Part shown: positions 26,156-37,192 of the stretch, in pieces | Layout of the letters: each line of letters starts with the position of its first letter | Numbering within the stretch: position 1 is the first letter of the stretch | DNA from: Escherichia phage vB_EcoP_SU10 | Direction: 5' to 3' (one strand) | Sequence record: NC_027395.1 | DNA length: 64,000 bases | The notes under the pieces: generated by a model | The model's database searches: none | What the model was told of the DNA's origin: nothing | Seen by the model: the letters and a program-made list of their open reading frames with translations, nothing else | Translations under genes and position numbers: made by a program

Positions 26156-28000
26156 TTAGTGTGTATGCATCCAGTTAAGTCCAATCTGACAATCAGATGC
26201 CAGAGGACATTCCATGTTCAGATACTCGCCAGCTTTCTTAACACAAAGCTCAGTGTGCTCTTTGAGTTTCTGTACATCATTACGGTTTACTGAGAATTGA
26301 CCTTCATCGTGCATATCAATTACCTTAGCACAACGAACCTTATCTTTCTCAATCCACTTGTTAAGGAACATCATAGCATATTTCATAACAACAGCACCAG
26401 CACATTGCAGGAGTGTGTTAAGGGCTTTATGAACCATAACCTTACCAGTGGCATCCCGTCTCATTGTAATCTTACGACCATCAACTCCAATCAAGTATCC
26501 TTGAGCAGCTTTCTCTGTCATACGATCAATGAGGATTGCAATACATGGGTTCTCTGCTAAGAAACGTGCTCGCATCACTGAACCTTCGTCAGCCCCACCA
26601 CCTACAATTGAACCAAGCTTAGCATCGCCAGCACCGTAGTTGAATGCATAGATAAACGTTTTAGCGTTGTCACGAGTAGGAAGACCAGCAAGTTTCTGGT
26701 TATGGGAGTGGATATCACCTTCAAGGAGAATATCACGATACATAATAGCAGAAGCTAAACCACGTTCTGCCAGAGCTTTCTTAGCTGGGTTGTTCTCTTC
26801 TATTGCCTCAGCAAGCATATCCCTACACTCTTTAATGAGGTAGTGAGCTAGCATACGAAGTTCAAGTCCAGAACCATCATACCCTAAGAACACTTCTTTA
26901 CCAGCGGGTATGTAATATTTGTAAGCACCTATAGGTTTGTCTTTCTTCCCCGGCTTACCTTTCTCGTAAATTACGTTAGTACCTTTTCGTATATAACAAC
27001 CATCAGGAACAACGTTAGTAATAACGAAAGGACGAGAGTGATCACTGTCTGAGTTATAGTCAGACTCAAACAAACTGCGACACTCGTGACCAAACAGACC
27101 ACGGGAGGGAATATTAACCACGATACGATGTTTGAATCGAAAAGTCGGCGTAGCGCAGCTGTTAGCTTCTGCCGAAAGTTTACCATCTTCGCGTTCCTTT
27201 GCTATAAGTCCACTGATAAGACCTAGCCTGTGAGCCGCTACAACGCGTCTCTTAAGCAAACTTCCGACACTCCCTAGCTCACCCCCTAACCCTTCTTCAA
27301 GAGTCTCCTCGAGGTTTGTAGGAGCTGTAGGCCACTTGTTTGATGTGGCTAGTGCTTTCTTAATCTCATCAAACGTTACAGGATTACGGCGATTAGGGTT
27401 CAACCCCAAACCAAATACGTAAGCCTTCATGTAATTCTTAGTCTTAAACCTGAAATGCTTTTCTAAGAACTTCTTAATATCAGCGTCAACCATCTCGGCT
27501 GTCTGCTTCTGCTTAGCATTGCCTCGCATCCAAGCAGTATACCATGCTTGGTATGTTCCATACTTTCTCATATCTTTCTTAATTTCGAAAGTATTCCAAG
27601 GCTTCTTAGACACGTTAAACTCTGGAGGAAGAAAGCCCTCATCCATAAGAGCTTCTTTAACTCGTGCATCTTTCGATGGGTCAAAGTCTACGTATTCAAC
27701 ACAGGTGAAAGCTCCACCAATATCTTCTCTCTTCAGCCCAACCCTATCACAATAGGCTTGAGGCCACTTCTGTAAAGCTCCAGACTTCTTAAACGGCTTC
27801 ATGTAAGTAGAGCCGTCTAATCTCATCTTAGGTAAGAGAGGAATCAACTCTCTGTCAATATTAACAATAATCTCTTTAAGGAGGTGAACATACCACCGAG
27901 CATTTCTTCGGTTGAAACTCACTCCGTGCTTTGCTTGCTTAGAGATTATATCAGCGACAGTCATCTCTGTCAAAAATGGAAGAGCGTCCGGGTTGCTCAC
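26156..28000 (-). CDS. DNA polymerase (family A, T7 gp5-like), polymerase-domain ORF
   Basis: KTFIYAFNYGAGDAKLG matches T7 KTFIYGFLYGAGDEKIG; C-terminal HDEGQF; N-terminus aligns to the region just after the T7 exonuclease domain. Confidence 0.85.
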   Translation of the reverse strand: MSNPDALPFLTEMTVADIISKQAKHGVSFNRRNARWYVHLLKEIIVNIDRELIPLLPKMRLDGSTYMKPFKKSGALQKWPQAYCDRVGLKREDIGGAFTCVEYVDFDPSKDARVKEALMDEGFLPPEFNVSKKPWNTFEIKKDMRKYGTYQAWYTAWMRGNAKQKQTAEMVDADIKKFLEKHFRFKTKNYMKAYVFGLGLNPNRRNPVTFDEIKKALATSNKWPTAPTNLEETLEEGLGGELGSVGSLLKRRVVAAHRLGLISGLIAKEREDGKLSAEANSCATPTFRFKHRIVVNIPSRGLFGHECRSLFESDYNSDSDHSRPFVITNVVPDGCYIRKGTNVIYEKGKPGKKDKPIGAYKYYIPAGKEVFLGYDGSGLELRMLAHYLIKECRDMLAEAIEENNPAKKALAERGLASAIMYRDILLEGDIHSHNQKLAGLPTRDNAKTFIYAFNYGAGDAKLGSIVGGGADEGSVMRARFLAENPCIAILIDRMTEKAAQGYLIGVDGRKITMRRDATGKVMVHKALNTLLQCAGAVVMKYAMMFLNKWIEKDKVRCAKVIDMHDEGQFSVNRNDVQKLKEHTELCVKKAGEYLNMECPLASDCQIGLNWMHTH

Positions 28001-28016
28001 TTTATACTCCTTTAAA

Positions 28017-28430
28017 TTATTGGTAAAGTAAATCTGTAAATGCTTGGTTATCTTCTACTACATCCAATGATGTGGAATCAACAGCATATGACCTCATTGC
28101 TGCATTTGTTTGTGCCCAAGTAGATGGAGAATAAGAAGACCTAATCTCACGAGGCTGCTCTCGTACCAGATGGGCCACAACCCTCTGATTAGCAACTTCT
28201 TCTCTTTCTCTGATAGCTCTCTGAATGTAGGCCAGCTTCATGCCCCAAGCTTCTTCAAACTCTTGAGGGTGTTTATCACTGATAACCACATATTGACGTT
28301 CAGGAATACCAGAGCGAATTTCTGACAATAATTCATGGAACAAATCCAGTTCGTGCTCAGTGAGATTCATTTCGATATCATCCCACTTGAGAACTAAGAA
28401 ACGGTTTTGGTGTCTAGCTGGTAATGGCAT
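28017..28430 (-). CDS. hypothetical protein
   Basis: 137-aa ORF. Confidence 0.4.
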   Translation of the reverse strand: MPLPARHQNRFLVLKWDDIEMNLTEHELDLFHELLSEIRSGIPERQYVVISDKHPQEFEEAWGMKLAYIQRAIREREEVANQRVVAHLVREQPREIRSSYSPSTWAQTNAAMRSYAVDSTSLDVVEDNQAFTDLLYQ

Positions 28431-28433
28431 AAC

Positions 28434-28718
28434 TCAACCTCTTGGGAATGGCATCAAAAATTCCACAGCAGATTTAATTTCATTATTGATTCTTGAATCA
28501 CGATAAGAGATAAACTTACCTTTGCTATCACGTAACATCACATTAGTTCTGGCTGTTTTGTGAGGGAGTAATGTGACACTAGTTGGAATAGCATCAACCC
28601 CTACAGCGTATTTGTCAATAGTCTTACTTTCAGCCAACAGATAAGACCAAGTACGCGGTTTCTGCTCCGGGCGGTTAGGGTATGTGTCCCGAATCTGAAC
28701 CATAGCTAACTTATTCAT
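28434..28718 (-). CDS. hypothetical protein, paralog pair member
   Basis: Shares TARTNVMLRDSKGKFISY ... PFPRG with the next gene. Confidence 0.45.
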   Translation of the reverse strand: MNKLAMVQIRDTYPNRPEQKPRTWSYLLAESKTIDKYAVGVDAIPTSVTLLPHKTARTNVMLRDSKGKFISYRDSRINNEIKSAVEFLMPFPRG

Positions 28719-35253: not shown

Positions 35254-35262
35254 TCTTATTCC

Positions 35263-36633
35263 TTAGTTATTTGTTTCTACGTCAAAAGAGATTCCACGAC
35301 CCGCTTCATCAGCAAACCGAACTGTACGGGTTTGAGGTTCTAATACTTCAGGGTTGTTAGTAATAAAGCGATCAGCGAGACTGCGGCTGACAGCCTCAGC
35401 GAGTTCCTCATGAGAAGGAGTATCAAGATCGGAGAGACTGCCTACCACATCTTGGGCCACACCTTCATCAGTCCACACAGCCCTAACAGGTGCGTTGATA
35501 TCACCAACAGCGAAACCCTGACCAGAGAACTGACGTGCACTAACGTTGAAGCCGTTTGGTCTACCACGAGAAGGACTAGCCATCCATCTCTCCATAGAAT
35601 CACTTGTAATACCAAGAGCTTCTTCAAAAGATGTTCTACGAGTAGGGCTTACTCTTCGTGACTCTTGTGCTCGACGCATTGCAGGGGCTACAAACACCCC
35701 TTCAATTGCATTGTGTCGGTTAGGTTCCTCTTCTCGACCAAGCAGATCACCACCCGTGTTAGTCGTTAAATTTGTCAACCCCTCAGACCAATACGCATGA
35801 ATCTGACCAGAACCGTGAAGACTAGACATAATCTGAATCTCTTCATAAGGGATTCCAAAGAATCGACTCATGTCTCGGTTGACACAATATAGAGCACTTG
35901 TTGTATCTTCAATAAGAGAAACCTGACCTAATCCATTGACTAGATGACTAACTGGCTGAGGTGTGGGAAGATATCGAGTTTGGGCCATGTATTGATGTGC
36001 AACTGCTGGAGAGGAAAATCTCAACACTTGTGAGTTAGGCCACTTCTTGTGAACATACCTGATTTCACGACTAGAGACAACCACTGGACAAGGGGAAGTC
36101 ATAGCCAAATATCCGTGAGAAGTCATGAATAAGTTGTCAAGAGTCATCGCACCACGGCACATCATAGGAAAATTATCCAATACCTCTTCAATAGAAGTAG
36201 GATAATTAAACATGAATTGGATACGAACCCCATTCCACTGAAACTCAATAATATCAGTGAATGTTAATTGAGAACCCCCAGCATAGGATTCGTTTGTAGC
36301 TTCAGCAAGAAGTGATGCATATTCAATATCTTGTGACTCTAGCCATTCCTTCACATTACTTTCAATCTCCCGTCCAAGCTCTTGCCAACGATCAGTTGGG
36401 ATGAAAGTGTTTTGAGTTCTTGGTGTTTGTCCTCTGACAATAAAGATATCAATGTCATGTGGAGCTATGTTATTAAGGACAGCATCACGAACAGCCCCAC
36501 CAGTAATGATGGGACAGATACCATCTGGAATCAAGTTGTTGTTAATCAACTGTTCAATGAAGTGACGACCAACAGTGATATCAGGTTGTTGAGCAACCTT
36601 ATCTTCAATTTGGTTAATCGGGATAACAATCAT
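35263..36633 (-). CDS. nucleotidyltransferase of the CCA-adding/poly(A) polymerase type with unknown C-terminal domain
   Basis: IITGGAVRDAVLNNIAPHDIDIFIV = GGxVRD ... DxD head motif; start MIVIPINQ. Confidence 0.55.
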   Translation of the reverse strand: MIVIPINQIEDKVAQQPDITVGRHFIEQLINNNLIPDGICPIITGGAVRDAVLNNIAPHDIDIFIVRGQTPRTQNTFIPTDRWQELGREIESNVKEWLESQDIEYASLLAEATNESYAGGSQLTFTDIIEFQWNGVRIQFMFNYPTSIEEVLDNFPMMCRGAMTLDNLFMTSHGYLAMTSPCPVVVSSREIRYVHKKWPNSQVLRFSSPAVAHQYMAQTRYLPTPQPVSHLVNGLGQVSLIEDTTSALYCVNRDMSRFFGIPYEEIQIMSSLHGSGQIHAYWSEGLTNLTTNTGGDLLGREEEPNRHNAIEGVFVAPAMRRAQESRRVSPTRRTSFEEALGITSDSMERWMASPSRGRPNGFNVSARQFSGQGFAVGDINAPVRAVWTDEGVAQDVVGSLSDLDTPSHEELAEAVSRSLADRFITNNPEVLEPQTRTVRFADEAGRGISFDVETNN

Positions 36634-36634
36634 T

Positions 36635-37192
36635 TTACATTTTCCAATATAATGAAGGTGGGTCGTAAGGGTCAAATCCCGTGAGTTCACACAAGAAAAG
36701 ATAAACCTTAACAGTTAAGTTAACGTCCTGTTCACAATAAGTAAACATATCTTCAGTGAAAGCATCCCATGCTTCCTCTTGCTCACCATAATCGCCCTTA
36801 AGCTCTCCTAAGAACTCACCCCACTGCTTCAAACCATGACCTCTTGGGCCACGTCTAGGGTCGCCTTTCGGATACTCAGGACTGTCACCAATACGGTCAG
36901 GTTTAAGATATCGACTAAGACATAAAGTGTCAAAGACGTTAAAATTATATTTAATCAAAGAGGGATACATCTTTTTCAGAGCAGGTAAGTCGAAGTCAAT
37001 AATATTATGACCCACTAGTACATCTGCTTCTGTAAGTTTACGAATCCCATCTTCAATTTGGTGAGGCCGATAGCCCCACCTTTCACCAGTTTCAACATCA
37101 AAGATATAAATACACCATACTTTAGTTATGTCATCGTACAGTGCATTACTCTCGATATCGAATGCAAACACTTTCTTCTTTTTCTTTACCAC
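36635..37192 (-). CDS. DNA polymerase 3'-5' exonuclease-domain ORF
   Basis: Exo I FDIESNAL, Exo [15 protein letters not shown], Exo [16 protein letters not shown] align with T7 gp5 residues ~1-190. Confidence 0.8.

Follow-up and report, generated by a model that had tools for sequence, protein, structure and literature searches.

A T7-type family A DNA polymerase encoded as separate exonuclease and polymerase genes in a phiEco32-like Escherichia phage

The DNA polymerase of phage T7, gp5, is a single chain of 704 residues, whereas two genes of Escherichia phage vB_EcoP_SU10 (NC_027395.1), lying 8.6 kb apart, resemble the exonuclease and polymerase halves of that enzyme. The locus raises the question of whether these are indeed two parts of one T7-type polymerase and, if so, how they came to be apart and whether their products work together. 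We analysed a stretch of 64,000 nucleotides (nt) of this genome, referred to below as the window. A first-pass annotation of it had described a T7-type polymerase split into two open reading frames (ORFs), and both are present where that annotation placed them: an exonuclease ORF (exo; 36635..37192, minus strand; 185 residues, GTG start) and a polymerase ORF (pol; 26156..28000, minus strand; 614 residues, GTG start), separated by a gap of 8,634 nt (28001..36634). Their features identify exo as the putative 3'-5' proofreading exonuclease subunit, and pol as the putative exonuclease-less subunit with thumb, palm and fingers, of a split T7-type family A polymerase. The split is not new, being a known and annotated hallmark of phiEco32-like and LUZ24-like phages. 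We consider it likely that this two-gene enzyme stems from an old fission at the linker between the domains and that its halves reassemble non-covalently.

Exo scores 35.3 bits against the Pfam family DNA_pol_A_exo1 (PF01612; cut-off 23.6) and also scores weakly for RNase_H_2. T7 gp5 is its sole match in a phmmer search of the PDB (E 1.5e-12). By BLASTP, exo residues 12-181 align with T7 gp5 residues 5-196 at 33% identity (E 6e-19), in keeping with the earlier observation that the ORF stops where the T7 exonuclease domain ends. All three 3'-5' exonuclease motifs named in the first-pass annotation were confirmed, and each aligns with its T7 counterpart: motif I (DxE) contributes D12 and E14, motif II (Nx4D) N63 and D68, and motif III (Yx3D) Y152 and D156. 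These six catalytic residues are kept in at least 97% of 94 stand-alone homologues. A model of exo built with AlphaFold2 (AF2; predicted local distance difference test score, pLDDT, 94.3) has the RNase H-like exonuclease fold of PolA. Its top 27 fold matches in the PDB are the T7 gp5 exonuclease domain (E 5e-11 to 7e-9), with the next matches at 7e-6 or higher, and DnaQ/epsilon proteins are absent both from the top 50 fold matches and from the PDB sequence matches. A tblastn search with exo matched 2,019 phage records, and the 60 rows inspected all fall in genes labelled 'DNA polymerase' or 'DNA polymerase part I'. Judged by its sequence, exo is a complete PolA-type DEDDy 3'-5' exonuclease domain, with predicted proofreading activity. 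Its GTG start overlaps the stop codon of the primase/helicase gene directly upstream (GTGGTAA) and GGAG lies 7 nt upstream, an arrangement by which exo is probably translationally coupled to that gene.

Pol matches the Pfam family DNA_pol_A (PF00476) with 83.1 bits (cut-off 34.3, E 2.5e-23), and its best match in the PDB is again T7 gp5 (E 1.2e-32), with Klenow and Bst far behind. The polymerase motifs are present as motif A (DxxxLE; D375/E380), motif B (RxxxKxxxFxxxYG; R443/K447/Y451 and Y455-G456) and motif C (HDE; H564-D565-E566). Their residues align with T7 D475, R518/K522/Y526 and H653-D654-E655, and all three motifs are invariant among 82 homologues. Tyrosine at position B3 of motif B is the published criterion for a T7-like PolA (PMC10201439), and the tyrosine at the T7 Y526 position is kept, the window reading FIYAF and T7 FIYGF. 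An AF2 model of pol (pLDDT 92.8) shows the right-hand thumb/palm/fingers fold, for which Foldseek returns T7 gp5 first (E 5e-26, TMq 0.57), followed by Bst, Klenow and KlenTaq. Sequence and model together indicate that pol is a family A DNA polymerase of the T7-like PolA subfamily (cluster 5 of PMC10201439). AGGAG precedes its GTG start with a spacer of 6 nt.

Within codons 10-19 of pol lies a perfect sigma-70 consensus (TTGACA-17 nt-TATAAT with an extended -10 TG; 27945..27973, minus strand), the sole such site in the 64-kb window against a chance expectation of 0.01. The site is also found in Escherichia phage Bas90 and in Kuravirus SGF2 but is absent in Crifsvirus A24. As a source of N-terminally truncated pol it was considered and set aside, since synonymous changes remove its -35 element in an 88%-identical relative.

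Exo and pol fit T7 gp5 end to end. A global alignment of the two products with gp5 is colinear over the full length; together they cover gp5 residues 5-196 and approximately 205-704, and there is no extra sequence at the break. In this alignment the break falls at T7 residues ~200-205, where a linker joins the exonuclease domain to the polymerase domain, and pol resumes at about residue 205. The earlier description of pol as beginning with the T7 region that follows the exonuclease domain, and as carrying the polymerase motifs, thus agrees with the alignment and with the presence of motifs A, B and C. Both halves have T7 gp5 as their top match in sequence and in structure, with the same catalytic motifs including the motif B tyrosine, and a gp4-like primase/helicase gene neighbours exo. 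Pol differs from gp5 in a shorter loop resembling the thioredoxin-binding domain (TBD) and in additional segments inserted into the thumb, into the fingers and ahead of motif A. The loop is kept in the pol thumb at the position of the T7 TBD (residues 262-338) with ~23 residues fewer than in T7, and its C-terminal part aligns (VEYVDFDPS in the window, VEHVVFNPS in T7). The TBD is not universal among T7-like phages (PMC10201439).

No other polymerase was detected. Pfam searches of the minus-strand ORFs of at least 180 residues, and of four of the ten large plus-strand ORFs in the structural cluster, found none. When T7 gp5, exo and pol served as tblastn queries, the two known loci were the only matches in the window and in the entire Bas90 genome. 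A full-length polymerase ORF elsewhere, which the first-pass annotation had named as the finding that would speak against a split enzyme, is therefore lacking in the window and in the Bas90 genome by these searches. An 87-residue ORF at 62106..62369 (minus strand) has a counterpart in Bas90, an 88-residue coding sequence (CDS) labelled 'polymerase'. The window ORF has no tblastn similarity to T7 gp5, pol or exo, and the label is probably an annotation artefact.

We next consider how widely the arrangement is shared. A megablast search with positions 26000..38000 gave matches in 98 phage records, of which 91 are Escherichia phages. Bas90 ranks first, with 96.6% identity over 98% of the 12-kb query, and its annotation names the orthologues 'DNA polymerase exonuclease subunit' and 'DNA polymerase'. 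Kuravirus SGF2 (Gordonclarkvirinae) is 93.9% identical, and SGF2 and its relatives range from 93.9 to 96.6% over 95-98% of the query. Over the 12 kb compared, the nucleotide similarity and shared gene order are those that define the Kuravirus group (at least 70% similarity), and on this sequence evidence the phage is a Kuravirus (phiEco32-like). Phages of this group (phiEco32/Kuravirus-like, Gordonclarkvirinae), 94-97% identical to the window, have the same feature and differ in nothing substantive, except that some carry a group I intron in pol.

Further afield, the stand-alone state of both halves persists. Each of the 65 near exo homologues stands alone, at 101-247 residues and with identities that reach down to 34%. 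An exhaustive search with exo gave 2,850 relatives, the best 150 of which include 35 of stand-alone size and 77 of 550-760 residues that match exo at the N-terminus; the latter are, by their length and the position of the match, fused PolAs. The best pol homologues all lack the exonuclease, including the 'DNA polymerase part II' of LUZ24-like phages (Bruynoghevirus) at 39-42% identity over 99% of the length, and the corresponding 'part I' is homologous to exo at ~34%. Fused relatives of pol come lower in the list, at ~43% identity over ~66% of the length. Catalytic residues of both exo and pol are kept in homologues down to ~35% identity.

Gene order is conserved as well. The synteny comparison suggested in the first-pass annotation was run and shows the order primase/helicase, exo, gap, pol to be common to the window, Bruynoghevirus, Crifsvirus and the metagenomic contig L012. 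The LUZ24-like phages share with the window a 5'-3' exonuclease gene following pol and, upstream, a block of amidoligase, glutamine amidotransferase, ATP-grasp and gamma-glutamyl cyclotransferase genes; they differ in genome size (~45 kb compared with ~77 kb) and in the length of the gap, which in Bruynoghevirus 'otherone' is 1.66 kb with six small genes rather than the 8.6 kb and 23 ORFs of the window. It measures 3.2 kb with 10 genes in contig L012, and 7.7 kb with 13 genes, including NrdD/NrdG and RNA ligases, in Crifsvirus A24. The gap ranges in length from 1.7 kb to at least 8.7 kb in the lineages examined. For contig L011, a search of the 10 kb upstream of pol found no exo gene. We rejected a recent insertion as the source of the gap, given that the same split occurs with different cargo in distant lineages. 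One fused relative, L006, has a primase/helicase gene, a ligase gene and then a fused exo-pol gene. A rough, unbootstrapped neighbour-joining tree of the polymerase domains sets 96 of 97 exonuclease-less sequences apart from six fused ones. The shared split, the conserved order and this grouping together point to one old fission at the linker.

An intron interrupts pol in some of these relatives. In the Kuravirus-like metagenomic contig L004 it is a group I intron (Rfam RF00028, 102 bits; contig positions 7354..7617) that breaks motif B (...FNY|G) at the equivalent of about codon 454 of the window pol, near 26640, and leaves ORFs of 454 and 139 residues. Such intron-split genes account for the many ~450-residue 'polymerase' matches that lack the Pfam domain. 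The window pol has no group I intron. We rejected an intron, intein or recoding route to a fused product; the intron of the relatives sits at motif B of pol rather than at the exo/pol junction, and is absent here.

The literature places the window among reported cases. Separation of the exonuclease and polymerase has been called common to all Kuravirus-like phages and is also reported for 7-11, Privateer, Vp_R1 and BUCT695 (PMC9965538). The phage tf paper describes polymerase and 3'-exonuclease as separate genes in all LUZ24-group phages, and relays from Savalia et al. 2008 a similar organisation for phiEco32 (PMC3517423). Comparison with phages of reported split polymerases, also suggested in the first-pass annotation, shows that the phiEco32/Kuravirus and LUZ24 groups share the split. 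A third case is the cyanophage S-SBP1 and its like, whose exo/pol split was described as the first of its kind in the 2023 reclassification of PolA (Czernecki et al. 2023, PMC10201439). There too a T7-like PolA is cut at the interdomain linker into an exonuclease and a polymerase, and the thioredoxin-binding element is shortened. The cyanophage genes are adjacent and separated by a recent 1-nt frameshift, whereas those of the window are non-adjacent, several groups of phages only distantly related to one another have the split, and a thioredoxin gene is encoded by the phage itself. Parallels exist outside PolA. In Escherichia coli Pol III, the polymerase (alpha) and the 3'-5' exonuclease (epsilon) are separate polypeptides of one complex. 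An analogy with the archaeal PolD subunits DP2 and DP1 has also been drawn (PMC10201439). Neither Pol III alpha/epsilon nor PolD DP2/DP1 is related to the family A polymerases, and the exonucleases of both lie outside the PolA-domain lineage.

These observations suggest the following course of events. The ancestral polymerase gene would have broken long ago at the linker between exo and pol, giving two genes. Exo would have stayed attached to the primase/helicase gene, with probable translational coupling, while pol is now found 8.6 kb further downstream, transcribed in the same direction, and the interval would have filled with nucleotide-metabolism genes and small ORFs of no known function. 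The two polypeptides are made separately, as the first-pass annotation had proposed and as both the sequence and proteomics of SU10 support, the latter having found the polymerase at about 69 kDa, which matches the exonuclease-less ORF in size (PMC4281155). Exo and pol would then reassemble non-covalently into a gp5-like proofreading polymerase working with the gp4-like primase/helicase. Strict co-inheritance of the two genes, the position of the break at the interdomain linker and the published AF2 complex of another split PolA, in which the S-SBP1 exonuclease and polymerase products superpose on unsplit PolA (PMC10201439), lead us to infer that the product is most probably a non-covalent exo-pol heterodimer resembling T7 gp5.

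Several points weigh against this account. Association of the two subunits is deduced from sequence and by analogy, and the literature searched yielded no biochemistry on the split polymerases of the Kuravirus or LUZ24 type. Taken by itself, the local match between T7 and the first ~70 pol residues falls short of significance, and it is the global alignment that places them. Likewise, the case for a single fission draws on an unbootstrapped neighbour-joining tree with one exonuclease-less outlier, P0178.

The most serious alternative is that exo is a free-standing enzyme that forms no stable complex with pol and acts in trans on mismatched 3' ends, or has another job such as recombination, degradation of host DNA or primer trimming, leaving pol without an attached proofreader. 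Such independence would suit two genes that lie 8.6 kb apart with no translational coupling between them, exo probably being coupled to the primase/helicase gene instead. It sits poorly with the co-occurrence of exo and exonuclease-less pol, in the same order, in four lineages that have diverged to ~35-40% identity, and with the fact that exo ends and pol starts exactly at the T7 interdomain linker. In addition, PolAs are reported to need the exonuclease domain for stability, and the AF2 complex of the other split PolA has the fused fold (PMC10201439). We regard a free-standing exo as unlikely.

A bolder reading holds that the fission has been put to use and is more than tolerated. Exo, probably coupled in translation to the primase/helicase, would be a dissociable replisome subunit whose dosage or recruitment is set via the helicase and not via the polymerase, and the phage thioredoxin from the gap would take over from host thioredoxin as processivity factor. 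Such a T7-like replisome would have four parts and tunable proofreading, and the gap would be a conserved site at which nucleotide-metabolism cargo lands. We hold this to be improbable.

Two further explanations are extremely improbable. Group I introns in the pol gene of some relatives do attest to RNA-level processing in the lineage, but production of a fused polymerase after all (through a split intein, RNA trans-splicing or recoding), or a split that is an assembly artefact or a decaying pseudogene, is opposed by the complete coverage of both ORFs by T7 gp5, which leaves no space for intein halves (and Pfam finds no intein domains), by a gap of 23 conserved, co-oriented ORFs, several with confirmed protein families, by a single tRNA as the sole Rfam match in the window, by an identical layout in at least 60 independent phage genomes, by the conserved catalytic residues and by the size at which the SU10 polymerase was seen (PMC4281155). 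As for exo being an unrelated stand-alone DnaQ/epsilon-type or other DEDD exonuclease with a superficial likeness to the polymerase domain, which the first-pass annotation had raised against itself, DEDD exonucleases do have motifs in common and the RNase_H_2 match is there, but the PDB sequence search yields T7 gp5 only, the 27 best fold matches are T7 gp5 as well, and N-terminal domains of 550-760-residue PolAs dominate the exhaustive search, with the listed phage matches lying in polymerase genes.

Directly upstream of exo is the gene for a T7 gp4-like primase/helicase (37186..38976, minus strand; DnaB_C 9.9e-11, weak Toprim_2). The C-terminus of its product (37186..37230, minus strand) is an acidic tail with a terminal aromatic residue. 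In T7, the gp4 tail is acidic, ends in phenylalanine and binds gp5. By analogy, the tail in the window is a possible polymerase-docking element. A separate 5'-3' exonuclease gene (T7 gp6/FEN-like; 17933..18775, minus strand; Pfam 5_3_exonuc_N 6.9e-6, below the cut-off) lies downstream in the same gene cluster. It is annotated as an exonuclease in Bas90, and gp27 of phage YF01 is described as a 5'-3' exonuclease (PMC9965538).

The gap itself (28001..36634, minus strand) holds 23 non-overlapping ORFs with the same orientation as exo and pol, and the corresponding gap in Bas90 has 24 annotated CDS. Most are small ORFs of no known function, accompanied by nucleotide-metabolism genes. The first-pass annotation had put about 20 ordinary genes here; the count and the conservation of these phage genes bear it out. 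Next to exo is a 456-residue protein annotated in relatives as a nucleotidyltransferase (35263..36633, minus strand; a sub-threshold Pfam PolyA_pol head-domain match, E 0.002). Its ATG starts one base past the exo stop codon, matching the annotation of the relatives, while the version in the ORF list extends to a GTG at 36690 and overlaps exo. It is followed, all on the minus strand and identified by Pfam, by genes for a dCTP deaminase (34720..35253), a ferritin/Dps-like DNA-binding protein (32943..33554), a thioredoxin (32419..32694), ThyX (31747..32403), an NAD-ligase Ia-like domain protein of 109 residues (30625..30954; Nlig-Ia, E 2e-35) and PhoH (29719..30456). The ligase-like protein consists solely of the N-terminal Ia domain, without the adenylation domain, and is labelled 'DNA ligase' in relatives. 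The thioredoxin has 91 residues and a CAPC active site (Pfam Thioredoxin, 1.1e-13). A thioredoxin gene also lies within the A24 and L004 gaps, and the protein has been detected in SU10 (PMC4281155). Thioredoxin as a processivity factor is a published hypothesis for phage Privateer (PMC7881722), and the window thioredoxin is a candidate for the same role with pol.

Beyond the primase/helicase gene, the upstream block at 40317..48780 (minus strand) encodes ATP-grasp, glutamine amidotransferase, amidoligase and phiEco32-type COOH-NH2 ligase proteins, with a gamma-glutamyl cyclotransferase nearby. Its position upstream of the primase/helicase gene is conserved in Bruynoghevirus and Crifsvirus ('otherone' and A24). 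The single tRNA gene of the window lies at 53332..53404 (minus strand; Rfam 72.4 bits), and Bas90 has a tRNA-Arg at the equivalent position.

With the split already published and annotated, its discovery value here is small. These phages do offer an old example, passed on widely, of a proofreader encoded far from its family A polymerase. The reclassification of PolA calls the adjacent split of the cyanophages the first (PMC10201439), and this older, non-adjacent split seems to be under-appreciated. In a phage of E. coli, it would provide a convenient natural system in which the stability, fidelity and processivity of PolA may be related to covalent linkage of the exonuclease.

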